In this document: positions 6,246 through 63,029 of the stretch, one piece after another | How positions within the stretch are numbered: position 1 is the stretch's first letter | Layout of the letters: every line of letters starts with the position of its first letter | DNA from: Perna viridis | Lineage: Eukaryota | Direction of reading: 5' to 3' | Length of the DNA: 64,000 bases | NCBI GenBank assembly: GCA_037379345.1 | Contig: CM074512.1 | Coordinates: 4,712,001 to 4,776,000 of the forward strand | Program-made: the position numbers and the translations under genes | Notes under the pieces: generated by a model | The model's input: the letters and a program-made list of their open reading frames with translations, nothing else | Told to the model about the DNA's origin: nothing | Databases searched by the model: none

Positions 6246-7607
6246 TTTTTAGCTCACCGAATGGAAGGTCACATGAGCTATTGCCATCATATGACATCCA
6301 TTTTCATTTGGGGTGTTCAAGGAAGTTGGCATTTTTCAATCAGATTTCAGATATCTCTTACATTTTTATATGACAGCAAAAACTTTGCAATCATATAATA
6401 AAAAATTATGGTGCATTGTCATCATCTTCTGGGTACACTTCGTTTCCCTGCAATAACATTACCTGTGGTTAACCAATTGTTCTGAAATTTTTATATGATT
6501 TTACTAACCACTGAAGGAGGTTCCTGTTTAATTTGGACTTAGTGGCCTCTACTGTTTTAGAAAAAGGGGACAAAATGGTGAAAATAAGTGTTTTATTAAA
6601 ACCCATGCAGAATGATTGGTTTTTTCTTTATTTTCATTGTTTTTTATTGTGATCTTTGTTTATTTCTGGTCAACAAATGTATCAGCAGATTTTATGTGTT
6701 ATGGACCGTTCATAAGTTATAATTATATTTAGTTGGACAATGCCAAAAAATTCAACTTTTTTATTTTTGGTCCGATTTTGAAATTTTTTATTGATTCATC
6801 ATAACTAATCCCTGTCATCAGTTTTCAATCAGATTTCAGATATCTCTTACAGTTTTCGAATTATAAGGGTCAAGGGGGCTAAACCTGAAAAAATGGACTT
6901 TTTAATTTTTGGTCCGATACCCAAAAAAAATTTATATTGGATTTCTCATAAATATCCCTGCCTGCACTTTGCAATAGATTTCAGATATCTCCCACGGTTT
7001 TCTAGTTATAAGGGGTCTAAGGGGCCACACCTGAAAAATAGCCTTTTTATCTCACCTGGCCGAAGGCCTAGTGAGATTTTGCCATCACTTGGTGTCTGTC
7101 GTCGTTGTGGACAAATTTTTAAAAATCTTCTCCTATGAAATTACTAAACAGGCAATGGTAAAATTGTCAAAACGATTCCTCAACTGATATAGGAGTTATG
7201 GCCCTTCTAATATGTATCTTCTAATACAAATGTAGATCATTTAATGAAAATAGGCATATTAGTTTTTTAGTGTAAAGTGCTCAAAATGACTGTTGTGATT
7301 TTTAATCCATTAATAGATATGGCTGCCTATACTAAAAATGGAACTTTGGGGTCGGAAGACAGTTTTTTGAAAAAAATTCAAAAATTGTTGCCTTTAGCAA
7401 AATTCTGGTTCAGGTCATGAAAATGCTATTAAAAGCATTTCTTGCATTTGACAATTTAGTTGATTTTAACTTAGCCTGTCCCAGATGAATTGTTAGTCCT
7501 TATGCTTAAGTGTGTCAAAAACTAATATTGTGTCCACATGTGCCACAACTGTTCAGGGTTCGACCACTTTGGGCGTATCATGCTGTGCTTGACAAAGCTT
7601 TTTATTG
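6246..7607 (+). mobile_element. Nested non-autonomous Helentron-like (HINE) elements
   Basis: TTTTAGCTCACC starts at about 6247 and TTTTATCTCACCTGGCCGAAGG at about 7046. The body and 3' end (GGGTTCGACCAC...CGTATCATGCTG) are homologous to the reverse complement of 42881-43917. Confidence 0.6.
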
Positions 7608-10255: not shown

Positions 10256-11043
10256 CTGTACAGTAATCAGTCTGTGTTATATGCCTTAATGTATAGGCAA
10301 GTATGTACAGTAATCACTCTGTGTTTTACTCCTTACATGTATTGGCAAGTATGTACAGTTATCACTCTGTGTTATACTCCTTACATGTATAGGCAAGTGT
10401 GTACAGTAATCACTCTGTTATACTCCTTACATGTATAGGCAAGTATGTACAGTAATCACTCTGTGTTATACACCTTACATGTATAGTGTAGTATATACAG
10501 TAATTCACTCTGTTATACTCCTTAAATGTATAGGTAAGTATATACAGTAATCACTCTGTGTTATAATCCTAACATGTATGGGTGAGTATATACAGTGATC
10601 ACTATGTTTTATGCTCTTTAAATGTATAGTCTAGTATATACTGTAATCACTCTGTGTTATACTCCTTACATGTATGAGCAAGTATGTACAGTAATCACTC
10701 TGTGTTATACTCTTTACATGTACATGTATAGTCTAGTATATACAGTAATCACTCCATGTTATACTCCTTACATGTATAGATGAGTATATACAGTAATCAC
10801 TGTGTTGTACTCCTTACATGTATATTCTATTATGTACAATAATCACTGTGTTATACTCCGTACATGTATAGTCTAGTATATACAGTGATCATTCTGTGTT
10901 ATACTCCTTACATGTAAGGTGAGTATAAACAGTAATCACTCTGTGTTATATTCCTTACATGTATAGGTTAGTACGTACAGTAATCACTTTGTGTTATACT
11001 CCTTACATGGGTAGGTGAGTATATACAGTAATCACTCTGTGTT
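10256..11043. repeat. Minisatellite, ~48-bp unit, ~16 copies
   Basis: Unit ACAGTAATCACTCTGTGTTATACTCCTTACATGTATAGGCAAGTATGT. Confidence 0.95.
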
Positions 11044-11295
11044 GATTGAAATAAGATACATGAATTTTGTACTTGTTGCTACCTACAGTGTTGGATTTTT
11101 TTTTTGAATTTCTCTTTTTTTTAAAATGCAGTATTTAGAGTGTGTTGGTTCTGTTAGGTGTGTAATTCTACTTGTAGTTCATATATCTTATTGAGCAATC
11201 ACAATGAAATCACATCTTATTTTTACCATCAATTATATGTGATTTATGTCTGGTATAAAGATGACTTCTTACTAAAATTGGTTTATCTTTTGTAG

Positions 11296-11379: not shown

Positions 11380-14300
11380 GTAAAGTTCACTAGTCACTAT
11401 GTAATTTGAATTCATTTTACGCCATCTACATTTTTATATCATCCGCCCTAAAAATTGCAATTCTTTATTATCATGAATTAAGTTTTGTTATTTTTGGACA
11501 GATAAGAGCAAACAAATTTGGGGTACCTACTTTTAAAATTGTGTCAAGTATGTACATGTACATGTGTAGATCATTGCTTTTTGGAAGACTACGGGGTCAA
11601 ATCACCAATTTCTAAATGTATCTCAAAAATTATAAGAGAAACTGGAAAATAAGCACTACAAAAGTCGCCATTTGATCACAGTTGTATGACTACTCCTTAT
11701 TGGAGATATTGCCCCTGGAAGGTCAAAACAAACAATTTACATGTATATGTTTTTGTTCTTAAAACTTGAAAACTGTAATTGATAGATAAAAACTTTTTGA
11801 AATAAAATGATAAAAAATTGTTAAAATGATCCTTTTTAGTAGGCCTACGAAAGTCTTCAAGTTCCAGGTTGTGTGACAACTCCTTAGTAGGGTTATTGCC
11901 CTTGAAAAACAAAAAATGACAATTTTTTAATGTTTAGCTTATAACTTGCATAACAAAATAGGTAGAAATAAACTTTTAATAGTTGAAATGATCCTTATAA
12001 TAAAGGCCTACTAAAGTTGCCAAAAGTTCTAGTTATATGAAGAACCTTTATTAGATATTGACCTTATACCCCCTTTTACCAGGTGAGTGATCAGCCTCTA
12101 GTTTTGTGTGGCTCAGGTGGCTAAATTTTGGCTGCAGCCCAAATGGCCATTGAAACCCTATCATGAAACTCATTTTTGGCATGAATCTTTGCTAACATTT
12201 AACCATTGCAGGAATGGTGTAATGAGGGACCCACATAAATGATTTACTTTCGTTTTTTTTTTATTTTTAATTTCTTGATTTATCCTCAAGTATGAAACAA
12301 AAGTTGTTTACAAATAAGGTTTGTATTGATATTTCTTTGTTCACTACAAAGAAAATAATAACATCAACTGAATTCTGGATAACTGTGAATTAATCCCTGA
12401 GGAAATTTACATAGGCAAGAATAATAATCTCATGATATAGTAAACATTGTCCTTGATAGTGTATCCTAGGATTTGTGTAAATTTTAGGAGAAAAATCAGA
12501 ATGAACAATGACTGCCAACTCAGTCATTGTCTTTAAGAATTTTTCTGGTATTTTAAGTTTTCAATTTGACATAGAAGTAAGTGGAGCATAATATATTGCT
12601 CGCTTATCAAAATTGGATTTTTTTAGGTATGGAATTCTAGAACACCAAAAAGTTTGAATTTATATAATGTGCAAATTGTTTTTAATACAACTGTATTGAT
12701 AAGTTCAATGAACTTCAAACTAACTATAAATTTCTTTCATAAAAGATGTAATGACATTTGTTGCCAATATTGTCATCTTCACAAAAAGGGTGGACCAAAT
12801 ACAAGACTAAGTGCACCATGCATCAAAGCATCCCTTTTCATTGCTGTTAAAAAATATTTCTTCCTTGTCACCTTAAGAACTTTACATACGGTTTTTATTC
12901 TCTATTTTCAGAGTAAGAAGATATTGATTTTCCTGGTGTTTAACATCATCAGTACATTTACATTGTTAGTATGGTGTCACTCAACAAACAGTATGGGTAA
13001 GTTATGGCACTAAATATTGATTTAAATAGTCAATATATATGTGTATGTTAAGAAATGGTTGTCAAATACTGATTTTTTATGTCCATGATGTTTTATCATT
13101 TGACTTCAATTATCTGAAGTTTTACTTTAAACTAATAATATAGGGTGTTAACATAAATAACTGTGAATATTGGCCTAAACAGATATCAAATTTCATGAAC
13201 ATGTGTGCAATATAGCATTGTTAGCACTAGTGCAAAGTTTTCTTTGGACACTGTTTATATGCAATGAACATGTATAATTGTTTTCTATTATTTCATTTTA
13301 TTCTTTTACCTGAAACATGATCAATAAATTTAGATTTTGTCCTGTAAACTATCAGATGATGTTCGTGTACTTCCTCAGTCAAAGATTGTAACTCTGCCCT
13401 GTAAACTATCAGATGATGTTCCTGTACTTCCTCAGTCGAAGATTGTAAATCTGCCCTGTAAACTGTCAGATGATGTTCCTGTACTTCCTCAGTCGAAGAT
13501 TGTAAATCTGCCCTGTAAACTGTCAGATGATGTTCCTGTACTTCCTCAGTCGAAGATTGTAACTCTGCCCTGTAAACTGTCAGATGATGTTCCTGTATTT
13601 CCTCAGTCGAAGATTGTAACTCTGCCCGTAAACTGTCAGATGATTTTCCTGTACTTCTTCAGTCGAAGATTGTAACTCTGCCCTGTAAACTGTCAGATGA
13701 TGTTCCTGTACTTCCTCAGTCGAAGATTGTAACTCTGCCCTGTAAACTCTCAGATGATGTTCCTGTACTTCCTCAGTCGAAGATTGTAACTCTGCCCTGT
13801 AAACTCTCAGATGATGTTCCTGTACTTCTCAGTCGAAGATTGTAACTCTGCCCTGTAAACTGTCAGATGATGTTCCTGTACTTCCTCAGTCAAAGATTGT
13901 AACTCTGCCCTGTAAACTATCAGATGATGTTCCTGTACTTCCTCAGTCAAAGATTTTAACTCCGCCCTGTAAACCATCAGATGAATCAATTTGCAGAATG
14001 TTCCTATACTTCCTCAGTCAGTTACAAACACTATGATAGAACATTGGAAGTTAAATGTACAGTTATTCAATCCTCATGGAAATAAATTGTTTCAAGTTCG
14101 ACAAAGTCTGATACCAGCCACTTGTACATCATGGTTAAGTCCCTTTTTGTACAGTTTATGGTTGCTTACATTTTCTGCTGATCTATAAAACCTTTACTTT
14201 GCTTTTATCAACTATTTAATTGACTTCAGTTCATTCTTTTTCTCGGGTTGGACTAATTCTGCTCTGCTCAAAAGATAGGCGATTCAACAGCCTGTTCCCA

Positions 14301-17300: not shown

Positions 17301-20300
17301 TACGTAAGTATCTTAAATATAAAACACACAATTTAATGCTTTAAAATAATTCAACATATTGTTGCGTGGATAGCGCCTCCATTTCACTGGTTTCCTTCAA
17401 GCTTTAGTGAATTGTTAGTAACTGTAAAAGCTTAGATGGTATCGATTTTTCATAGAAACTGTCAAGGGGGACTACTTTTTTGGGATGGAAACTTAATGAA
17501 AACTTTTTAGGCATGACTTAGGCATGTTGCCCGGGTAGCGTCTCAATTTTTTTATGGATTTAATTCATACTTTGGTGAATGATTAGAGCCTCTTGTTCTT
17601 TCCCAGGTCCCATTTAATCCATAATTATTTCTTTAGTTATTTTTATGATACTGTGATAAATGGTATCTGCATAAAAATCAGTTGTCATGGTGCCCAGTAA
17701 AACATCTTACATGTATTAACATACATGACATTTGAAAGGATGTGATATTTGATAGTGTATACATGTCTGGTATTCAAAGATTTATATTATATACTAGTAA
17801 AGTATTATTGTTCTTGGGGTACCAAATTTTGTGATTTTCATGGGTTTGGAAAGCACAAAATTTAGTTCTTAACAAAAAGAAAATGTTCCATTCATTTGTA
17901 CGATAGAGTTGTCAAATCCACATATTCAAGAATCAACAAACTGATCATTTTCTCCTAAACCATGAACATTGGTACCCACGAATTAATGTACGTTTTGCTA
18001 GGGTTGTTGTTCATCCTTCAGAGGAGGACAGGTGATAAACCTCCAACTAGTTGGTTATTTATTTTCACTTAAGGATAAATATTCATACTAATTCTGCACT
18101 TTCCCACATTTTTTTTCTCATCCTCCAAATCCTGTCCCTCAGTTCATTTCTCTTCCTCCAAATCCACTTTCAAGCCACTTCTGTAATAATACTAAAATAA
18201 AATGCAAATACAACATAAAATTCTTTGTTTCAGTGGAAGGTTAATGATAGCAACAATTTCTGCTTTTTTTGCCCATTTTACTCTGACATATTGTATCAAT
18301 AACCAAGCAATGAACCATGTTGTTGAAGCATCTAGTTCCAGTTGGTTACAGGAACACATGACAGACATGTCAGAGAGGTAAGAGTCTAGTTCTCAGTGGT
18401 TTCATGAACACATGACAGACATATCAGAGAGGTAAGAGTCTTGTTCTTAGTGATTACAGGAACACATGACAGACATGTCAGAGAGGTAAGAGTCAAGTTC
18501 TCAGTGGTTACAGGAACACATGACAGACATGTCAGAGAGGTAAGAGTCTAGTTCTTAGTGATTACAGGAACACATGACAGACATGTCAGAGAGGTAAGAG
18601 TCAAGTTCTCAGTGGTTACAGGAACACATGACAGACATGTCAGAGAGGTAAGAGTCTAGTTCTTAGTGATTACAGGAACACATGACAGACATGTCAGAGA
18701 GGTAAGAGTCAAGTTCTCAGTGGTTACAGGAACACATGACAGACATGTCAGAGGGGTAAGAGTCTAGTTTTTAGTGATTACAGGAACTTACATAAAATCG
18801 GAGATGTTATGTTTGAATCCATCATCACAGTCATTGTCTTTGGACAAATACAAAAAAAGGAAGAACCAGCCAGTTGTTTTAAGACTGCATAAGATTTGTA
18901 GTCATATATTGGTATCATGTTATGGTCTTAGTAGATATTAAGTTAGATATATTTAAGGCTGTAACATCAGGTGCTATACTCCCAAAGGAAGTCTTTGATT
19001 GATTTTAGGGGTTGTGATGGGAACCATTTAAGAATTTGGACCTGAAGCAAGCATTTTCATGATTTCTGGAAATAGCTTGAGTGAAAGTAAATGATCTCTT
19101 ATAATGTAACACAAGATACCATGTCACCTTAGGTAAGCTAAGATTGATAGTAGAAATTTTCACAAGAATTAGGGACCTAAGGACTCAATTACAAGCATTT
19201 TTCTGATGATAATAACTTGAGTGTAAGAGTATGTATCCCTTTGAAATTGTAACACAAGGAGCTTTACTCCCAAAGGAAGGGTGGGATTGATTGTGGCTTG
19301 AACCATCCAGAAATTAGGGACAAAAAAGGGCCACTTGGATTTAAGTATGCCAAACATTTAATTGAATCCAATTTCAGGCTTGAATGGTCTCTCAGTACTT
19401 GCCCAGATTGTTAAGGATTCAACCTCTACAGTTGTATCAAGCTGTGCCTTGAGTAGCATGTTATTGATTATAGTCTTATTGAATAAAAATAGTGTCAACA
19501 CCTGCACATGCAGTACATGTGACTGTCAGGGAGCTATTTATTTCCAGATGGTTACAGCAATTTAGATAATGTAAGGTCCTTGTTTTATCAAATAGATATA
19601 TATATGAATTTCTGTGTAATTATATAACAAAATTAAAAAAAAGAATATGACAACTGTCAAAATCGTTGAGAAATAATTCTAGTAATGGCCAAATTTTACA
19701 ATAATGTGCTGTTATCAATATTTTTCTCGAACCTGTAAATCTTACTGGTCAGATTTCAATTGAAATTGGATATATATAGACTGTATACAAATATGACTTT
19801 TATTCCACAAAAATATACATATAATAGGATTTACATCATCAAATAAAAAGTACTATTATAACATGTCTTTATATACTACATCAAATACCGTAAAGGGGGT
19901 AATTTTTGCAGGGTGCTAATTTTTTTATGTTTTAGTGGTAATTTTAAAAACACCAAAAATAAAATTTGTAAAATATTTACTCTTTGATTTAGTACTCAGT
20001 ACACACAGTATCTACCAAAATATTTTGTAATCCTTTTGCCTCAAAATTGCCTTCTGTTTTTAGCTCACTTGGCCATAGGCCAGGTGAGTTATAGCCATCA
20101 CTTGGCGTCCGTTGTTGTCGTTAACAATTTTTTAACTCTTCTCCTCTGACTCTACTTGACCAATTTGAACCAAACTTGGTATGAATGTTCCTATAAATTG
20201 TAAAACATGGCCACTATTAGTAAAAATAGAATATAGGGATCTGAGAGTAGTTTTTCGCATACATCTCCAAAACCGTTAGGTTTAGCCAAATTCTGATGAG

Positions 20301-23300: not shown

Positions 23301-26300
23301 GTCCCAGAAATAGGTTGAAGATTTCTTTTGTCAACACTCTTCTAAAGAATTGTTTTCAACATTCTAGCCTGAAGTATTATAACTTTAAAATGAAGAAATG
23401 AACTGATTGTCTCCAAAAGATCTTTAGAACTTTTCAGGATCCACATTGAACTAATACCACTACAGGAGTAACAAGTGTTGTGGTACGACTGCAGACCCTC
23501 TTTCACAGCTGTTAGTATAGAAGTTAAAAGTTTTGAAAGAGGTTTGGTGGTACATTTTGCAGATCCAGCTATGTAATGTTGTTTGTATGGATTAGACGGT
23601 AAATCACAATCATCGTCCGTGGTAGAGAGACCAAAAGAGGATGGCACAGATTTATGGCTTTTCACAACCTCTTCTTTGAAGAGTATGGTAGCAGTATACA
23701 TGTAGGTCTTATCACTGCTATTATTTTCTGTTTCTGCCTCTGATAATAAATATTGGATGTAAAACGCTTTGCAGACAAAAACAATGTTGTTTTGAGCTTT
23801 GTCTGCTGGTACCACAACATACTTGTCATGTATAGTAGACGATGTTTCTGCTACATCAGGGTCTTTGAAAACTGATGTAGAATTGGTACTCATTGACCTA
23901 CTTAAAACTTTCATTCGTTTCAAAATTAAGTAAAGACCTCACAGCCTTCAACCACTCCGACAGCGAATCAATGTCTTCTTGTTCTATAATTCCAATTTAT
24001 GGAGCGAGATTCACAGTACTTGGGACCTTTAGAAAGGATATTACACAGAGATTCGTTTTCAATGATGGATAAATCTCCTGTAATGATGTGACTGAAGGAC
24101 CATATTTCAATGGAGAGTTTTTGCAAGAACAGTCAGGTGGTTTAGCTTTGAAGTCCTCAATCTCAAGGTTCTGCAATAGCCTTTTATAATTGAAAATTTT
24201 GGATGCAATGGGTGAAGTAAAGGAATGTAAAATGATTGGTATGGAATTGTCTTTGAAATAAGGGGGGGATTTGTTGGTAGCGTTTTTGTGATGGAGGATG
24301 TTAGCCAAATTAATTGCATCTATACCTTTGTTGACAAACAGTAGTGTAAGAACTGATCGTTTTTCTTCATCTTGACTTTTCACACAAACTGGTTTAAAGA
24401 GTCCATGGAAACCAATATCCAAAATGATGGCAACAAGTCTGTATAATGATGAGGTAGGGTCAGAAACAGGAGTGTCAAGACTTGTTTTGTAAAGGGAGTG
24501 TAGTAGAATGTGAGGTATAGAATAGAGTTTTGTTCGAATGTGATGAAGTCCAAGAGGTTTTTGTATGAAAGGAAGGAGACCATCTATGGAGACATCATGT
24601 AACTTAGGTGAAGTATAGTGGCGATGGCCATGACTCCTTTTCCATCTTGGAAATTTTGTCCAAAAAATTCATCACATTTATCCTATTGTTATATTGGTTT
24701 GAAAGGTCTCCTATACTTTTGATGTTGTCAGTGCATCCGTAGGGTATTGCACTACCTAGTCTGCGTATCCAGTTCTCCTCTCTTTCCAAACGATAGTTTT
24801 TACTAAGAACGGGACTGTTCGTAGGATGGTCACTTTTTTCTAAAATACAACCTTTCATAGAGAGGATTGAATGATCTTTTGATTAAAATGTTGATAAACT
24901 GTTGGGAATTTAGTGGTATTTATTCCCGAATGAAGACCGCACGTTCTTTTGTTTAAACTAAGTCATTCAAATGGCAATAGAGAAAGAATATCCTTTGAAA
25001 AGTTGTCATGTTCATAAGCAGGGATTTAGCCAGAATTTTTTTTAACAAAAACAATACAATAAAACATATCATCACAAGTTGTTTCTTAGCTACTATTAAA
25101 CATCAGTCTCAAAATACCTACTATTAAATGTCTGCACCAACACTTGTAAATTATTTAAAATGAAACAATTCCAAAAAAGATGTTTACAAAATGCTGGAAT
25201 TTTTTATCGACAACATATTTGTCCAGTGTGGTGGACGCATTTTTCAACAAAGGGTCGGCATTCCAATGGGAACAAATTGTGCTCCTCTACTTGCTGACCT
25301 ATTCCTTCACTCGTATGAGGCTGACTTTATTGCTTATCTGATCCAAAAGAAAGAATATCATTTAACTAGATCCTTTAATCTCAGTTTCCACTATATAGAT
25401 GATGTATTATCTTTAAACAATCCTAATTTTTGGGATTTGATACATCACATCTACTCCAAAGAACTTGAGGTAAAGGATACTAAAGACACTGTGAAGTCAG
25501 CCTCATATTTTGACCTACACCAAGAAGTCGATGGTAAAGGAAAACTATTGACCAAAGTTTACGACAAACGTGATGACTTTTCATTCAGAATTGTCAATTT
25601 TCCTTTCATCTGTGGCAACATCCCTTCAGCACCTGCATATAGAGTATTCATATCACAACTCATATGTTATGCCAGAGCTTGCCAAAACTACGCAGACTTT
25701 TTGTATTGTGCTAGAATTCTAACAAATAGGCTTCAGGAACAGGGTTATGTTGCTACAAGATTGAAGTCATCACTACAGAAGTTTTATTGCGTCATCATGA
25801 ACTCATGGATCGTTATGGTATATCCATCTGCACCATGAAAACTGATTTGTTCAGCATGTCATAGTTTTCCTTTCCTCTTTCGTCTACCCCGGACTTGACT
25901 TTTTATGAGCAACTTGGCGAGAGTTTCTAGAAAAGCAGAGAAAGCTTACCCTACTGGTGCACCTGGTCCATGCTCCCAGTTTTTAGTGAGTCTGAGTTGC
26001 TCATTTGCTTTTGTTGCTTTGTGTGTATGATTTTAGTTACTTTGTACTCTCTTTTTGTGTATGTCTGTTTTCCATGTCTTTGTCCCTGGATTACATTCTT
26101 TTGATTACCGCTATAACCTTTGTTTCCTTGATTACTCTTTAGAAATAATCTCAAATAAATCATAAAAGAAAAAGATTTTAAAATGTGTGAATATTGAATA
26201 TTGCTAATATTATTATTATTATTTTTTTTTAGACATTTTAACAAAAATAGTTAATGAGCCATATTGATTATTTTGTTATAGGATAATTAATTGGAAAAAG

Positions 26301-33523: not shown

Positions 33524-34195
33524 TCATCTTCTTTAGTTTTTCACGTTTTATTTATAATTTATTTGTATGTAGTTCCTTTCTACCTTTTAAACGTGGCTAT
33601 TCTTCTCTTAATCATTATTCTTAAATTTAAAAAGTCAACAAAAAATTGGTTTTTTTTAGTTGTTTTCAGTTTCAGCATAGTTTATTTTTTTATTACAAAT
33701 ATAAAATCATATCAGTATCTGTTGTATATAGTAGAAACGTGTCCAGAATTTATCAGATAATTACAAAATTTGAAAATTATTTCAGAATTTTCACTGTTGA
33801 TGGTCTAAACGAGTTTATTGAAGGGGGACAATTTAGGAAATTTTTATTAGAATTAAGGATGAAGTTATACATGTTGGATCTCTTATTAATTGTAATACGA
33901 ACAGATATCGAAGAAATGGATCTTGTCTTCAATATAATTAAGGCTACATTTGTCACAAGTTCTACTCACTAACGGATTGGAAGGCTAAGTATACCTTTCT
34001 GTTTTTAACTAATCCGAAAGTTATTTGACTTCTAATTTTAACACCCTTTACAGCATTAATTTATTTTTCAAAACAGAAAATATCTGTTAGTTTGAGATAT
34101 ACTCTCAGGTTTTGTCAACCACCAATAAGTTTAAGTCTGGCTTAATACCAAATATCAAGAAGGTACAAAATTAGTTAATATGTCAAATGCATACG

Positions 34196-34678
34196 CATAT
34201 AGGGTATACCATATAGGTCTAGAGGTGTGATATAGGGTATACGATATAAGTCTAGGGGTGTGATATAGGGTATATGATATAGGTCTAGGGGTGTGATATA
34301 GGGTATGCGATATAGGTCTAGAGGTGCGATATAGGTCTAGAGGTGTGATATAGGGTATGCGATATAGGTCTAGAGGTGTGATATATGGTATACAATATAG
34401 GTCTAGATGTGTGATATAGGGTATATGATAGGTCTAGAGGTGTGATATAGGGTATGCGATATAGGTCTAGAGGTGTGATATATGGTATATGATATAGGTC
34501 TAGAGGTGTGATATATGGTATGCGATATAGGTCTAGGGTGTGATATAGGGTATGCGATATAGGGTGTGCGATATAGGTCTAGAGGTGTGATATAGGGTAT
34601 GCGATATAGGTCTAGAGGTGTGATATAGGGTAGATGATATAGGTCTAGAGGTGTGATATAGGGTAGATCATATAGGGT
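34196..34678. repeat. Minisatellite, ~33-bp unit, ~14 copies
   Basis: Unit GATATAGGTCTAGAGGTGTGATATAGGGTATGC, built from two GATATAGG subunits. Confidence 0.93.
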
Positions 34679-35344
34679 TTAAACAAACACTTATAATGCA
34701 CATACAAAAAAGTTATATTTTGATCTAAATATTTGATGTATATATGTATCAAATAGCATGTAATACAGACAGTAATATTCATTATATATCAGGGCCCTGA
34801 TAATGTATATGACATATATAGTCAACTGTAACGAGCCCCTGTGTCTGAATCGGAAACTGGGTAATGTTCAATGCTAACCGACCATTTCATCTTTTAGTGT
34901 AAACTTCCCGTTCTCGTACAAGCAAAAAACTCGCATAGAACACGTGTGTATGATATTTAAGAGGTACACTTTGAAGCTAGAACTATGAAGTATGACGATA
35001 AACACGGTATCGATCAGCGGCTTAATGTGGAGTAGTAATATGCAAGTCATATGCGAATGTAAAGTACTGAAATTAAGAGTGCAAGAAGTCGCTAACAATA
35101 TTAGCGACTTAAAAAGAGTGCAGTGGATTGAAATGAAATGGTACGGTAATGGTTGATTATATGATATAAAATAATAGAGTTTCTCGGAGCGCAGCATGTT
35201 GAACTTTGTTTACTTTGGTGCAAGTTTGGACACCATATTAGCTTTTCCTGTGTGTATTTTTTTTTTTTTTTTTTTTATTTAGTGTGTTTAAGGGAAAGGT
35301 CCTCTGCATTTCTAGAAAATTCTGCCGAGTTGCCCATATTTAAG

Positions 35345-36030
35345 TAAAGTTCAGGGTAGACGAAAGAGGAAAGGTTAAACTGAAGCGTTGAGCAAATAAG
35401 TTTTCATGGTGCGGATGGATACACTGTAAGACCCTAGAGTTCATGATGACGACCATAAAACTTCTGTAGTGATGACTTCAAATTTGTAACATCACAACCC
35501 TATTCCAAAAGCCTAATTGTAAGAAGTCTAACGCGATACAATGAGTCTGCGTAGTTACAGCAAGCCCTGGCATAACGTATGAGTTGTGATATTAAAACTC
35601 CATACGCAGGTGCTTAAGGGATGTTGTCACAGATGAAAGGAAAGTTTACAATACGGAATGAAAAGTCATTGCGTTTGTTGTATAGTTTGGACCCTAGTTA
35701 TCCTTTACCATCGATCTCTAAGTGTAGGTCAAGATATGAGGCTGACTTCGTAGATTATGTAATATCCTTTGTTTCAAGTTCTTTGGAGTAGTTGCGATGT
35801 ATAAAATCCCCGAAAGAAGAATTATTTAAAGACAATACGTTATCTTTATAGCAGAAACCGAGATCAAAGGATCTAGCTTAACGATGTTCCTTGTTTTGGA
35901 TCAGATTAGCTATAAAAAGCTCAGAAGAGTGAAAGAATATGTCAGCGAGTAGCGGAGCTCAATTTGTTCCCATTCAAATGCCAGCCGTCTGTTGAAAAAC
36001 GCGTCCACCACACCGGACAAATATGTTAAT
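35345..36030 (-). mobile_element. Naiad-type PLE fragment (RT C-half), old
   Basis: Reverse complement aligns to 25215-25895 (AACATATTTGTCCGGTGTGGTGGACGCGTTTTTCAACAG; GAAGTCAGCCTCATATCTTGACCTACAC). Confidence 0.8.
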
Positions 36031-36589: not shown

Positions 36590-37350
36590 ACAGCCGGAAC
36601 CCAACATGGTCGTGATATTTGCAGATATTCTACCAAGTCAGAACCGATAATAGTTGAAATCCATAACTTCAGAACCCAATACAGTCGTGGTATTTGCAGA
36701 TATTCTACGCTGTCAGAACCGATAATAGTTGAAATCCATAACTTCAGAACCAAATATAGTCGTGGTATAGACAGAAAGTTCACACCGTCAATACCCACCA
36801 TAGTCGTGATGTAAGCAGAAAATCAACATCGTTCTAACCAAAATTAGTTGTTTTGTTAGCAGAACCCAACATAGTCATGAGGTAAGCAGGGAATTCATAC
36901 CGTCAAAACCCAACATAACCGTGATTTCAGCATATAGGGAGCCCAAACATATAGTCGTGAATAAAGCAGTGAAACCTTACTGTTTAAATCCATTATAGCT
37001 GTGGTGTCAGTAGGAACTCATACCGTCAGAAACCAGGATAGCTGTGGTGTCAGTAGGAACTCATACTGTCAGAAACCAGGATAGCTGTGGTGTCAGTATG
37101 GAACTGATACCGTTAGAAACCAGGATAGCTGTGGTGTCAGTATGGAATTCATACTGTCAGAACCGAAGATATGTGTGGTGTCAGTAGGGAACTCGTACCG
37201 TCAGAACCCAAGATAGCTGCGGTGTCAGTAGGGAACTCATACTGTCAAAACTAAAGATAGGTGTAGTGTCAGTAGGGATGTCATACCGTCAGAACTCAAG
37301 ATAGTTGTGGTGTCAGTTGGGAACAGATATCATCAGAACCCGACGTAGTC
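36590..37350. repeat. Degenerate minisatellite, ~44-bp unit
   Basis: Unit CAGAA(A)CCAGGATAGCTGTGGTGTCAGTAGGAACTCATACYGT; more diverged at the 5' end. Confidence 0.85.
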
Positions 37351-37914
37351 ATGACAGTAACAACCGTTATATTTCAATGGCTAGATCATGCATCAGCACA
37401 AAGTTCAAGATAAATAAATATAATCTGAACCTGAATGACGCAAAGAATGACGGTAGAAAGGGTTCGAATCCCGCTGAGTGAGCGACCAAATTTGCAACCT
37501 CGCATCGATTCCAGAGTTTTGGTGTACCTTAGACTTGATTATATATGTATATGCATCCTTGTATCAATATTTTGTGTTGTTCTAAGCTGTGCATACTATA
37601 TGTCTATATATTAATGCACTAGCAAGTAAGATGGTAGAGTCCCCACACTAGACATATATGTATATTACTTGGTGTGGCTGTATCTGTATTTCGATGTAGA
37701 TACCATCAGAGGTTGTCATATCGTAAACACTATCCAGTTATACATCCACGCTTTAGATTTATATACGAGAAAGTATCATTCGGTTAATGAAAGCTACATT
37801 GATGTCAGAGCAAAGAAAGGGTCTGAATCCTACCGAGGAAACGACCAAATTTGCAGCCTCGCATCAATTCTAGAGTTGGGTGTACCTTAGACTTGATTAT
37901 ATAAGTATATGAAT

Positions 37915-40549: not shown

Positions 40550-41460
40550 TATGTTTTTTCAACAAAGGGTCGGCATTCCAATGGGAACAAATTGTGCTCC
40601 TTTACTTGCTGACCTATTCCTTCACTCTTAAGAGGCTGACTTTATAGCTGATCTGATCAGAAAGAAAGAATATCGTTTGGCTAGATCCTTTAATCTCAGT
40701 TTCCGCTATATAGATGACGTATTATCTTTAAACAATCCTAATTTCGGGGCCTTGATACATCGCATCTACCCAAAAGAACTTCAGATAAAGGATACTACAG
40801 ACACTGTGAAGTCAGCCTCATATCTTGACCTACTTAGAAATCGATGGTAAAGGAAAACTATTGACCAAACTTTACGACAAACGTGATGACTTTTCATTCA
40901 GAATTGTCAATTTTCCTTTCATCTGTGGCAACATCCCTTCGGCTCCTGCGTATGGAGTGTTCATATCACAACTCATACGTTATGCCAGAGCTTGCCGAAA
41001 CTACGCAGACTTTTTGTATTGTGCTAGAACTCTAACAAATAGGCTTCTGGAATGGGGTTGTGTTGCTACAAGATTGAAGTCATCACTACAAAAGTTTCAT
41101 GGTCGTCATCATGAACTCGTGGATCGTTATGGTGTATCCATCAGCACCATGAAAACTGATTTATTCAACGGGTCATAGTTTTCCTTTCCTCGTTTGTCTA
41201 CCCCGGACTTTACTTTTTATGAGCAATTCGGCGGGTTTTTCTAGAACAGCAGAGGACGCTTACCCTACCGGTGCACCTGGTCCATGCTCCTATTTTTTAA
41301 TGGAATTTGAGTTGCTCATTTACTTTTGTTACTTTGTATGTGTGATTTTAGTTACTTTATATTCTTTGTTGTGTATGTCTGTTTTCCATGTCTGGTCTTT
41401 GTCCCTGGATTACATTTTTTTGATTACCGCTATAACCTTGGTTCCCTTGATTATTCTTTT
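40550..41460 (+). mobile_element. Naiad-type PLE 3' part, close relative of 25180-26140
   Basis: Near-collinear nucleotide identity to the intronic copy; GIPMGTNCAP, FRYIDDV, YDKRDDF; the RT frame ends at 41178. Confidence 0.9.
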
Positions 41461-53294: not shown

Positions 53295-53900
53295 ATATAT
53301 CTTGACCTACACTTAGAGATCGATGGAAAAAGAACTATATACGACAAACACGACGACCTTCCATTCCCTATTGTCAACTTCCCTTTCATCTATGGAAGCA
53401 ACCCTTCAGTTCATGGGAATCGAGTTTTCATTCCACAACTCATACGTCATAGCAGAGCTTGCCGTACCACACGGACTTTTTGTACCGTGATAGACTTCTT
53501 TCGATTAGGCTTCTGGAACAGGGTCATGTGGCTATACAAGATTGAAGTCATCACTAGAGAAGTTTTATGTTCGTAACCGCGAACTCGTGGATCGTTATGG
53601 TGTATGCATGTGCACCTTGAGAACCGATTTTTTTTTTAACGTTTTCCTTCCCTCTTACGTCTGTCTATGTGCAATTCGGTGGGTGTTTCTAGAAAAGTAG
53701 AGGACGCTTATGCTACCAGTGCACCTGGTTCGTGCACCCAGTTTTTAGTCGAGTCCGGATTCATTTACTTTTGTTTCTATGTACTGATATTATGGTTATG
53801 TCAAGTTCTTATTGTGTGTGTCTGTTTTCTCTGTCTGGTCTTTATCCTTGGAATAAATTCTTTTGATTTCCATTCGAAATTTGGTTCCCTTGATTATTCT
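53295..53900 (+). mobile_element. Naiad-type PLE 3' fragment, old
   Basis: YLDLHLEIDGK..YDKHDDLPFPIVNFPFI, followed by the same 3' non-coding block. Confidence 0.85.
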
Positions 53901-55569
53901 TATAAAAAATCGATATTGAGAATTTTAACTGAACTTAGCATATGACTGAAGATTATTTAGCAAAAGGTTGTTCCAAAATCCATTCTAGTTTGGATACTGA
54001 TAAGGAAATCGACCTCATTATACATAAATCATATACTTAGGCGTGGCGGACTGTCATAATTCTCGAAGTTGTAAATGTATTTTTTCATTTTTTTCTTCTT
54101 CTTTTCCGAAACCCCAAACTTCAGATGTATATAACATTATTTTGAACTTATTAATGAGTAAAAAACTTTAAACTGCCGTTACTATTTATAATATAATACA
54201 TTTACGTATTTTGTGTCAGGATTTTATGAAATTTTAGTAACGCATGGTGTTTCGATCTACGCCACGTTTAACAGAACATGCTCGGCATATGTGCTAAGAT
54301 TTTACATCTTGGTCAAAGAACAGGCACATGGAAAAGGATTTATTACCACTCTTTTTCTTTTCTAAAACTTATACTATGCATTACTTCGTTCAATTTTATG
54401 TGTTATTCCTTTATTCAATGACCTATATTATATGCATATGCAGGCATGGGGGTAGGAAATGCCTAAAAATGATAGTAAAATACATGCAAGTGGGGGTCGA
54501 TGGTACGAAATACTTAAAAGGGCTTAAATCTGAAATTCAAAATGTATGGGTCTGCAGTACCTCACCTCAGTCACAAGTGTTGTAGGATTTATGTTATTAC
54601 GAAATGTACTTCGCAAGTGCAAATTATTGGTTTAAAAGACAGCTCATTAAACATAATCTGTTGAGCATCTACATTTTATTTTTCAGAAAATAAATGTATC
54701 ATGTGCATGTAGCGGTATGAGTGACATTACATCGTTAACACGATTTCTAAGGGTTTTTATTAGCACTGTGCATTAGTTTATACCCAACATATGCACACTG
54801 CATTTAATATAAAAAATGTCAGAAGCTTAGATGAGTACTTTTCAGTAATTAATTTGGCACTTTTATTGTAGAAGTATTTGCAAAATGTTTCTCGTTATCT
54901 TATCAGTAAACTGCACTTTTTTCAACATGTTTGGTTGATGTAGATGTACGTAGCTCCCACGCACAGTTCATCTTGAGTTCAGTTAAAATCGGTTAGCCAA
55001 TCAGAGGATAAATCATATAATGTTATTGAATTCATTTTTTACTACAAAGAAGTAAATCACATAACCATTAAATCGTCAAGGCCGCATGGAAAAATCGCTA
55101 ATTGAAGAACAGCTCACGATCATATTATTGCTACATACGACATCTATAAATTCTATAATAATATATTCCAGAGGAAGATATTTTCTTTCCTATATCTATC
55201 TGTATATACACACCATGATTATATAATCGACACGAAGAAATACACTGTATGGTACAACCAGCTGACAGATGAGAGTAATGTTTCGTTCATTTATTATCGG
55301 TAATCTCTGGTGTGGCTATAAATATACTCGACCTGACCTTTGACTGACCACTGCCTCGGTCATGCTAAAGTTGAATAATCAATCTACTCTACATTAGTAG
55401 ACGCATTTGATTTATAAAAAAGATCATCTAAGTTATTTAAATATTTGTTATTTATCAATATAATTCGTACTGAACCTTCCATATTATAAATACTTTGTTT
55501 GCGTAGGTTTTCTTGATTACACCATAATTCATTCGAAAACGAGGCTTGCTTAATTCTGACATGCAACTG

Positions 55570-56064: not shown

Positions 56065-56109
56065 ATTTAAAGTTAACCTGTAGGGTTTCGAGATAAAGAT
56101 TTTTGATGT

Positions 56110-57135
56110 ATGGATATGGCTGATGATGGTTCCAAGGATAAAGGAGAAATGCACTACACTGCCCCAACCCTTACTAATAAAGAGGAATGGCAATCAATAA
56201 GTCAGACAACGAATGGTTACTCATCGGAAGACCGTAGCAATTCACCAATAGACTTCTCATTTAAACGCAAAAATGGTGACAACGAAATATCTGGTTCCGA
56301 ATCAGCTCCTTCGCCTGCGTCTACGAATGATACAGGAATACACCTCGACGATAGGAAAATATCAAATTCTGATACAGAAGAAAAAGTATCGTTCAATGGA
56401 ATACCACCTGAACGGATCAAGTCTGAACCTGATATAAACTGGTCTATGAGCCATAATATGGCTAACATGCTGTCAGCCTTTCAGGCAGGGTTAATACCAA
56501 ATCCTATGCTCGGACCTCTACCATCAATGGCAGCGCTCTTAAGTCCACGATTCTCACAGAACAAATCATCATCCGCCCGTCCATTTAAGTCATACCCTAA
56601 GGACCAATTGATAATGGGAGGATTCGGGGGTCACTCTCCCTCTGATTCAAACGGGTTACAGAATCTCAGCATTAATGGTGAGGAATTCATGAATATTTAC
56701 CGTCAGCATATGTTAATGGGCACAGGGGACAGGGAGAAGACAGCTTCACCATCTCAAACTCAATCAAAATCTCCACCAATCATATCCACCTCACCGAGCT
56801 CAACCTATAGTGCAAATGGGTCGCGACCATCATTCAGTCCAAATAGTACACGATCGCCAGCGCAGAATTCTGGAATTTCATCAACCAGAAATTATGTTCC
56901 AGGTAGAAAACGCCCTCGTTCTTTACCCGACGAGCAGAAGGATGAATCTTATTGGGAGAGGAGACGAAAAAATAACGAAGCCGCCAAACGGTCCCGAGAT
57001 CTACGAAGAGCTAAAGAGGATGAAATTGCAATACGTGCAGCATTGTTAGAACAAGAAAATTTAAAGTTACGGGTAGAAGTAGCAGCTCTGAAAACAGAGA
57101 CCGCGAAGTTACGTTGTATGTTGTATAACAGTTGA
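56110..57135 (+). CDS. gt: bZIP transcription factor, giant-like (PAR/E4BP4-related), 341 aa, single coding exon
   Basis: C-terminal b[55 protein letters not shown]. Upstream are the RPFKSYPKD motif characteristic of Giant orthologues, a PIDFS (PxDLS-like) motif and IKSE. The long ORF is intact. Confidence 0.9.
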
Positions 57136-61417: not shown

Positions 61418-62570
61418 GATATATGACCAATGTAAGAGATGTGACCAATATTTGATATACGACCAATATATGGTATGTCTAATTTAGTTTACAACAATTT
61501 TATTTGTTAACTTTACAAAAGGCATAGGACACGATTTTAACCAACTTATGAAGTCTTCTCCCAACAATAATATTAAATACATAAATTAAAATATTGAGGG
61601 CATGCATTAAATCATTATTAATATTAAAAAGATATTTTCAGGACAATTAAAAAAAGAAAAACAACAGTACAATGAAAAAATGACTTATTTTATAGACTAT
61701 AACTAATGTTTTATGACCGATGTTAGGGATATGACCAACGTTGGATGTTTTATGACCGATGTTAGATATATGTCCAACGTTAGATGTGTATTACCGATGT
61801 TAGTGATATGGCCAACGTTGGATGTGTATGACCGATGTTAGTGATATCACCAACGTTGGATGTGTATGACCAATGTTAGTGATATGTCCAACGATGGAGA
61901 TATGACTAATATTTGATATGCAAGTATGACCAATGTTAGAGTTTTGACCAATGTTAGAGATACGAACAGTGTTGGATATACGTCTACTGTTATAGATATG
62001 TCTAGAAATATGACCGATGTTGGAGTTTTGACCAACGTTGGAGATATGACCAATGTAAGAGATATGACCAAAGTTTGATATATGGCTAATGTTGGAGATA
62101 TGACCAATGTAAGAGATATGACCAAAGTTAAAGATATGACCAGTGTTATATATATGAACAATGTTAGATATTTTACCCATATCAAATTTATGACCAATGT
62201 TGGATATATGACCAATATTTGAGATATGATGAATGTTGAGTGTATAACTGATATTAGAGATATGACCAATGTTAGAGATATGACCAAAGTTAAAGATATG
62301 ACCAGTGTTATACATATGAACAATGTTAGATATTTTACCCATATCAAATTTATGACCAATGTTGAAGGTTTGACCAATGTTGGATATATGACCAATATTT
62401 GAGATATGATGAATGTTGGATGTATGACTGATATTAGAGATATGACCAATGTTAGAGATATGACCAATGTTAGAGATATGACCAATATTATAGGTATGAA
62501 CAATGTTAGATGAATTACCCATATCAAATTTATGACCAAGGTAGGATATATGAACAATGTTTTGATATTC
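61418..62570. repeat. 18-bp minisatellite with higher-order duplication, interrupted by a LINE fragment
   Basis: Unit GATATGACCAATGTTAGA; ~160-180-bp blocks repeated at ~62100-62460. Confidence 0.93.
61483..61682 (-). mobile_element. LINE 3'UTR fragment, same family as 687-2118
   Basis: TTAGTTTACAACAATTTT..CCAACTTATGAARTCTTCTCCCAACAATAATAT..ATTGAGGGCATGCAT matches 692-915. Confidence 0.85.
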
Positions 62571-63029
62571 TGTCTAACATCGACTTTAAGCCGTGGCTGT
62601 ACTATTTGTTAGAGTTCAGGAACACGAATGGTTCCAGTTCGTAAGTCTAATGACCTGTTAGCAAAGACAAATTAATAACATATATCATCTACTACGACTT
62701 CTACGATGATGGTAATTTTAATTGGATTATTTTCGGAGATGGTACACGGTTCTCCAATCTTCGTTGATGCACGCGTGTTCATCCAATTCGGAATTTTGGA
62801 AAATCTGGAACGAAAAGGTCAAAATTAAATTGGGGAAAGGTAAAATAGTTATGTAAACAAAAGTTTACACTGAAAAAAAATAAAATAAGCAATCATTTTA
62901 ATTAACTTATACATGTAACAAATACTTGTTCTATTTAGGATCTTTACCAATGGGATCTCCATTTTATCATTGTTTTACCACGGGCTGACCATTTATGTCG
63001 CATTATTTCATCCCGAGCGATAGCGAGTC

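Follow-up and report, generated by a model that had tools for sequence, protein, structure and literature searches.

The 3' region of a Naiad-type Penelope-like element (PLE) of Perna viridis encodes a real, undescribed and conserved RNA pseudoknot, termed motif I, in which helices P1, P3 and P4 covary across element families. No description of this RNA was found in a full-text literature search, most subscription papers lying outside its reach, and the accessible parts of PMC10085705 and bioRxiv 2026.07.22.740005 do not cover it. The finding bears on an open question, namely, the role of PLE ribozymes and the reason for tandem or inverted PLE insertions, which can now be addressed because both the position of the cut and a requirement for dimers are predicted.

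A covarying pseudoknot in the Naiad 3' region

In the window, the whole 64-kb stretch of DNA that was analyzed, motif I is present at 41219-41319 (the focal copy, supported by sequence, covariation and a covariance model), 25905-26004 and 53667-53764, all on the + strand, and the sequence at these coordinates bears out the three copies proposed by a sequence-only reading of the same DNA. Each of the three is found in the 3' part of a retroelement copy truncated at its 5' end, 40 nt behind the RT stop. A covariance model (R2), the training set of which includes a copy of the same family as the window copies, gives exactly three matches in the window, at 71.7, 58.8 and 50.8 bits. The focal motif lies within a 5'-truncated Naiad copy (40555-41459, + strand) that comprises the C-terminal part of the RT, the 3' UTR/pLTR and the fixed 3' end common to most copies, and that is 94% identical to a near-full-length copy in genomic stretch L338. 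The RT stop codon (41176-41178, +) is followed by a gap of 40 nt before the motif, as had been proposed. The second motif copy sits within a Naiad copy at 25177-26140 (+) and the third, which is more decayed, within one at 53297-53901; a fourth Naiad copy, at 35291-36027 (-), breaks off inside the motif and retains only its first ~47 nt. The stretch 23399-26140 resembles a twin-primed insertion, with the upstream 1.6 kb of Naiad sequence (23399-24956, -) inverted relative to the 3' part (25177-26140, +). Elsewhere in the window, a long open frame at 56107-57135 (+) ends in a bZIP domain (Pfam bZIP_2, E 2e-15) and probably represents the terminal exon of a transcription factor of the host. Minisatellites with periods of 48, 57, 54, 33, 44 and 18 nt are found at 10259-11086, 13227-14055, 18272-18865, 34164-34709, 37012-37363 and 61860-62632; the 18-nt and 57-nt arrays yield long repetitive open frames.

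The host element is a Naiad, as first proposed, and the assignment is made by domain and pLTR features: an N-terminal GIY-YIG domain, CxC and DKA motifs, and a C-terminal RT. GIY-YIG is detected above the Pfam cut-off (E 7.7e-06) in the 5'-most ORF piece of L338, DCSCK, ADKAQ and RYIDD occur in that order in the ORF pieces, and RVT_1 is matched with E 7e-04, which is below Pfam's cut-off. Five long genomic stretches were used for the element anatomy. Upstream pLTRs are seen in L335 and L338, and L335 is a pLTR-ORF-pLTR copy that carries the complete motif in each pLTR, at a distance of about 3.0 kb from one another. Terminal repeats (tails) of 35-36 nt are present in L337 and in read joints, and the 3' end of the element is sharply fixed, 138-140 nt downstream of the motif. 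The accessible part of PMC8557442, the paper defining Naiads, lists GIY-YIG, CxC, DKA, a C-terminal RT, a tandem pLTR arrangement and a 30-40 nt tail as Naiad features; it also states that canonical hammerheads are absent and that a ribozyme is perhaps not needed. In the 723 Mb genome, a 20-mer from the element 3' end has 19,062 matches compared with 0 for the control, corresponding to at least 19,062 copies, and both tandem and inverted Naiad copies occur. A further stretch, L051, contains a tandem array of motif-core pieces (GCTTAC...CACCTG about every 57 nt), which is possibly a satellite derived from a Naiad pLTR.

The order of elements is the same in all families: the P1 5' strand, CGGGUG, palindrome 1, RRCAG, the P3 5' strand, GCUYAC, YC, palindrome 2, CACCYG, the P3 3' strand, P4 and the P1 3' strand. 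In the focal copy, the P1 5' strand (41219-41231) pairs with 41307-41319 at 13/13 positions, three of them wobbles, and 8/9 counted pairs show compensatory change. The P2 5' strand CGGGUG (41232-41237), which has a G-to-T change at its last base in the focal copy, pairs with CACCUG at 41274-41279, and sequence and alignment place the P3 3' strand directly after it (41274-41284 for the two together). P3 pairs 41253-41257 with 41280-41284, crosses P2 and shows compensatory change in 5/5 pairs, and the P4 hairpin (41286-41306), with a variable U-rich loop, does so in 3/5. The remaining conserved strands, RRCAG (41248-41252) and GCUYAC (41258-41263), are unpaired apart from the AG of the former, which RNAalifold pairs with the CU of the latter. 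All four stems of the sequence-only reading (the closing stem, CGGGTG/CACCTG, the GCTCC/GGAGT hairpin and GGAC/GTCC) are present. The closed multi-stem fold drawn from them stands in its stems and fails in its nesting, because GGAC/GTCC crosses CGGGTG/CACCTG to give a pseudoknot, and that description also overlooked two zero-loop palindromes, at 41238-41247 and 41266-41273.

Covariation was assessed in an alignment of 24 family representatives, which were chosen by eye with visibly truncated or deleted copies excluded. In this alignment, 85.7% of 812 cells are paired, compared with 74.2% in shuffled and 37-45% in slid alignments, and two-sided compensatory change is seen in 24/34 pairs, so that the fold as a whole covaries across families. 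None of the 500 shuffles attains any of the five measures, a result that is not a p-value since the shuffle breaks kinship. P2 is paired in 99.3% of cells and is almost invariant; the invariance of P2 and of the core bases, which is in part a product of the search patterns, puts them beyond a test by covariation. P3 crosses P2 and all 5 P3 pairs covary, and motif I is therefore a pseudoknot. Cells with G-U outnumber those with A-C by 103 to 35, or 62 to 35 when two near-invariant columns are removed, and this excess points to the sense RNA. The case is built on comparison rather than on folding energy because the window copies fold barely better than shuffles: they are decayed, with z = -1.47, -1.69 and -0.64 compared with -2.62 for a better-preserved genomic copy. 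Folding energy on its own is weak evidence for motif I.

An alternative pairing, of GGGUG (41232-41237) with YACYC (41261-41265), fits all families by eye, the variable positions being pyrimidines that face G; this pairing is outside the reach of covariation. If formed, it would bury the predicted cut site described below and could represent an off state.

Two loop-less palindromes and a predicted homodimer

Palindrome 1, of 10 nt, is directly 3' of CGGGUG (41238-41247; family form TTTCTAGAAA, with one change in the focal copy), and palindrome 2, of 6-8 nt, is directly 5' of CACCYG (41266-41273; TACCGGTG). Compensatory change is seen in 5/5 symmetric pairs of palindrome 1; its central pair, of which six types occur, is intact in 21/24 rows, and the neighboring pair (25-28) is intact in 24/24. 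In the published motif I consensus sequences, read by eye, palindrome 1 is self-complementary at 5/5 pairs in 12/12, with a center of TA in four, AT in four, CG in three and GC in one, and a second palindrome adjoins CACCYG in 12/12. By eye, palindrome 2 is ACCGGT here, while other families have TCCGGA, CCTAGG, CCATGG, TGGCCA, TGGTACCA, TTTCGAAA, TGTCGACA or CCTGGG. The chance of such a palindrome per random sequence is about 0.008 for palindrome 1 and about 0.10 for palindrome 2. An unbiased genomic sample of 36 parsable copies contains 26 with palindrome 1 intact, 32 with palindrome 2 intact and 22 with both. The counts are lower, 66 for palindrome 1 and 80 for palindrome 2, in 126 copies of this genome that were selected by pattern, in part because two of the patterns picked changed palindromes.

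Across 11 copies, palindrome 1 is worth 0 to -1.2 kcal/mol as a hairpin versus -9.0 to -18.9 kcal/mol as a self-duplex, and the self-duplex of palindrome 2 is worth -6.5 to -10.7 kcal/mol. The adjacent central bases cannot pair within one strand, yet they stay complementary, and from this we infer an RNA homodimer. On these grounds, motif I probably forms a homodimer through two intermolecular helices. A monomeric structured element, acting as an RT-positioning signal like telomerase RNA or as a nuclease-blocking fold, would reduce the palindromes to tiny hairpins. The predicted monomer of the preserved copy (z -2.62) does contain P1, P2 and P4, and the fixed 3' end at 138-140 nt from the motif fits a positioning role. 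However, a hairpin needs no complementary central bases, which are kept here at the frequencies given above, the palindrome hairpin energies are about zero, and the distance to the 3' end differs between families, which together make a monomer unlikely. Telomerase RNA has a fixed geometry between its pseudoknot and template start. With a motif-to-3'-end distance of 140 nt here and of about 60-330 nt, by eye, in the published consensus sequences, the analogy to telomerase RNA made in the sequence-only reading is not borne out.

Palindromes are also typical sites of dimeric DNA-binding proteins, and those of motif I might act in DNA, as endonuclease binding or nicking sites or as cDNA fold-backs, with the rest of the motif being inherited transposon sequence. 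In keeping with this, a PLE endonuclease can cut its own pLTR, according to the part of PMC11167929 available to us. Against it, the palindrome sequences are unconstrained between families, G-U is favored over A-C on the sense strand, for which double-stranded DNA or cDNA would not select, and the long-range stems covary too. A role confined to DNA is very improbable.

Distribution of motif I and a second motif in the same slot

String searches of the PMC8557442 supplement place motif I near the 3' end of at least 12 of the 54 Naiad consensus sequences published there, the count being a minimum because a line break may split a search word. The carriers, with names taken from the next header and table order in that supplement, are 1_Chem, 2_Chem, CGi, Sglo, Olur, Tgra, Pmar, 1_Skow, 2_Skow, 1_Pfla, 2_Pfla and Cmel, giving a host range of Cnidaria (hydrozoans), Mollusca (bivalves), Hemichordata and one fish. 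The attribution of the motif to the 3' region of Naiad-type elements is thus correct as to the place, but the motif marks one group of Naiads only; among the supplement matches examined, it is absent from the Chlamys passages. Conserved-core patterns retrieved further motif I families in the same genome, as well as at least 119 metagenome stretches, and GCTYAC is located 68-119 nt behind a Naiad-like RT end in 11/19 loci examined. At least three Clytia Naiads share, upstream of motif I or in its absence, another conserved hairpin motif that is rich in GC (GGCCACTCGG ... CCGAACCGGG).

The core pattern also matched 120 bacterial and 4 viral sequences, in which pairing is at chance level, ruling out these matches as prokaryote or phage relatives of motif I. 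As a chance control, P3 pairs in 5/117 bacterial matches versus 29/32 metagenome matches, and the long palindrome, palindrome 1, is intact in 1/117 versus 24/32; palindrome 2 is intact in 12 of the 117. The one true match, in a 407-nt scaffold of a bacterial assembly (L245), is by eye identical to the published 3' end of Naiad_Pmar, and the scaffold is taken as eukaryotic contamination.

In sister Naiads, the slot of motif I is occupied by a different RNA, motif II, which was found in five (Mgal, Bpla, Mphi, Scon and Mmer) of six further bivalve Naiad 3' ends; the last 600 nt of the sixth, Mcor, contain neither motif. Motif II includes the elements GAGGU, YAA and a loop GU(A/U)CCAAG, and by eye it maps onto the twister table in the accessible text of PMC8501958 as a permutation opened at P5. 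Its P2 varies as CC/GG, UC/GA, GC/GC and GC/GU and its T2 as AC/GU and CC/GG, changes that are compensatory. The place of P1 is taken by a palindrome of 8-12 nt without a loop, and behind it comes a second stretch that is nearly palindromic. By inspection of its sequence, motif II appears twister-like, an assignment that is unproven: the best Rfam match is twister-P1 at 11.9 bits (E 5.9, gathering threshold 67.2), a scan of 16 motif II loci gave no twister match, and a loose twister pattern is uninformative (2,244 matches versus 2,547 in the control). A literature search for twisters in Penelope-like elements gave none, its scope not extending to the supplement of PMC11662667, a possible source of tested bivalve twisters.

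Motif II has a family in this genome as well, with 883 exact matches to a 16-mer from P4 versus 1 for the control. The RT lies 100-162 nt upstream (L433, L416), and the core could be parsed in 6/20 loci. This second abundant Naiad-like family, with motif II behind the RT stop, is represented by L416, L423, L427, L430 and L433, at about 1430-1530 in each. In L417-L419, the P4/L4 part of motif II is repeated in short tandem arrays with a spacing of about 35 nt.

Candidate ribozyme activity and likeness to known RNAs

To our knowledge, the natural self-cleaving RNAs described so far fall into only about a dozen classes. Penelope hammerheads reside in pLTRs, have a palindromic helix III and act as dimers, as described in the available parts of PMC4209133 and PMC6765202, and 17/54 consensus sequences of PMC8557442 carry motif I or II in the hammerhead slot, both with palindromes. 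The suggestion that motif I substitutes for the hammerhead survives as its best reading, on the basis of the shared slot, the palindromes and the covariation, and we see about an even chance that the dimer is an undescribed self-cleaving ribozyme in place of the dimeric Penelope hammerhead. Each of the two palindromes would pair with its own counterpart, either between the repeats of a single tandem transcript or between separate transcripts, and the two resulting helices would replace the usual closing stem of the catalytic loop. The strands RRCAG / GCUY-AC of this loop would then adopt the twister-sister L1 loop fold, and the cut would fall between Y and A (window 41261/41262), although this exact site is rather doubtful. 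Cleavage would free a unit-length RNA, perhaps aided by the protein of the element. The broader proposition, that motif I is a new self-cleaving class and an obligate homodimer and that Naiads have repeatedly swapped ribozymes (hammerhead-like, twister, motif I) in one slot, each made into a palindrome-gated dimer, is possible but falls somewhat short of an even chance. If true, it would provide a new scaffold, above all an obligate dimer, of interest to RNA biochemists, and possibly a concentration- or tandem-sensing switch.

Hammerhead-core flags are found in 1/17 consensus sequences with either motif versus 16/37 others (p = 0.01, with kinship ignored). For motif I alone, the figures are 1/12 versus 16/42 (p = 0.08), a weak exclusion, and Naiad-1_Chem has both motif I and a hammerhead flag. 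In the ~19% of RNA run X21 that was read, the element is covered on both strands and there is no pile-up of read starts or ends; most of its reads on the element continue into unrelated sequence, indicating that they come from passenger copies. A junction 2 nt from the predicted cut (L334:6440) is among the commonest 5' junctions but is no commoner than those at 6418, 6425 and 6433. A threefold rise in depth across the motif had raised a truncation hot spot as a candidate, which was rejected because the 5' ends of 94 copies anchored at the 3' end decay smoothly: about 20 fall in the motif and 17 and 14 in two 100-nt windows upstream, with no hot spot and none at the predicted cut. According to the accessible part of PMC11167929, the active Poseidon hammerhead likewise leaves no such cleavage footprint, its cutting required protein, and it is dispensable for insertion in vitro. 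Given this parallel, the missing footprints weigh little either way, and they leave room for a dimer that is not catalytic.

Retroviral and Ty1 genomic RNAs dimerize through palindromes, and motif I could be a comparable dimer-linkage and protein-loading module in which the invariant bases form a surface for protein or tertiary contacts. Two templates would be joined by the palindromes, and a dimeric RT-endonuclease would prime both DNA strands or jump between templates, giving tandem or inverted insertions. The covariation and palindrome evidence also fits such a module, as do the tandem and inverted copies in this genome and the lack of a cleavage footprint in the RNA reads and 5' truncations, and the Poseidon protein is a predicted dimer that cuts and extends both strands (PMC11167929, in the part accessible). 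As in the retroviral and Ty1 case, self-complementary stretches would pair two genomic RNAs; the Naiad palindromes differ in that their element has no capsid and in that they lie in its 3' repeat, as parts of a pseudoknot with invariant core bases. However, other PLEs have a hammerhead at this position and sister Naiads a twister-like core with palindromes, a pattern suggesting that the palindromes gate a ribozyme. The core bases also do not change between families whose RT proteins share only about 53-67% identity in the C-terminal part. We regard a non-catalytic module as a real but lesser possibility, and the comparisons that follow concern the self-cleaving reading.

As the sequence-only reading had stated, the canonical hammerhead is lacking: CTGANGA is found on neither strand of L334:6341-6640, and Rfam gives no relevant match for the whole window at E<=5 or for a clean copy at E<=10. 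With no CUGANGA...GAAA core and no Rfam match, a hammerhead identity of motif I is rejected. The predicted scissile bond comes from a likeness to the twister-sister and twister-sister-like ("lantern") ribozymes, a class with metal-dependent cleavage at C-A. In the accessible part of PMC11620745, the residue names give loop strands of G7 C8 U9 C10 A11 A12 and G36 C37 N38 A39 G40, in which C8 pairs with G40 and U9 with A39 and cleavage falls between C10 and A11. Motif I has CAG and GCUYAC as its invariant unpaired bases. Motif I shares the 5 x 6 strand pair, with GCU(Y)A facing AG in the same pairing register (PMC11620745, PMC6154101, both as accessible), and partly matches L1, exactly at six bases and by tolerance at one, the C/U at the cut site. 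In the available text of the same two papers, twister sister tolerates C-to-U at this position, and the LINE-1 ribozyme does so in part. Moreover, Naiad-2_Chem by eye has GCCAG, which is the OR4K15 strand as read from the residue names in that part of PMC11620745. The cut strand of motif I, in contrast, ends in C, and there is no P4 loop. The counterparts of G36 and C37, which contact the scissile phosphate in twister-sister ribozymes as far as the sources seen describe, are mostly purines, being A in 19/24 rows for G36 and G or A in 24/24 for C37. Furthermore, twister-sister L1, as those sources describe it, lies between two Watson-Crick stems without a pseudoknot, whereas the flanks in motif I are the pseudoknot strand P3 and the junction with the palindromes. 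As in motif II, the two palindromes stand where the strands of the closing stem would be expected. We treat the likeness as a lead for a cut at 41261/41262 and not as membership in the class.

Motif I resembles twister, which is known from retrotransposons, in having, like T1, a strand within the P2 multiloop whose partner is the 3' side of the junction beneath P2 (accessible parts of PMC8501958 and PMC6154101). A twister identity is rejected since there is no UAA loop, no CCAAG / GUCCCAAGC-like L4 loop and no GAGGG strand. With HDV-like ribozymes, motif I shares two crossing helices in a retrotransposon UTR, and it differs in that its 5' end is not free (bioRxiv 2022.09.22.508989, in the part available). 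This class, a nested double pseudoknot of P1, P1.1, P2, P3 and P4, is rejected because the P3 3' strand directly follows CACCUG, leaving no P1.1, intervening P4 or J4/2 catalytic C. Pistol, with a 6-bp pseudoknot from the P1 hairpin loop and a G-U cut between P3 and P2, is rejected as well, as the 6-bp helix of motif I starts outside a hairpin loop and the strand order is different. The closest parallel in arrangement is the PLE hammerhead, in the portions of the hammerhead papers accessible to us, with which motif I shares the pLTR site, occurrence twice per tandem insertion, a palindrome in a stem's place and a predicted dimer; it differs in having no CUGANGA core, a pseudoknotted fold and two palindromes, of 10 and 6-8 nt, rather than one of 2-4 nt. 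By these comparisons, motif I belongs to none of the ribozyme families considered and is predicted to work like the dimeric PLE hammerhead.
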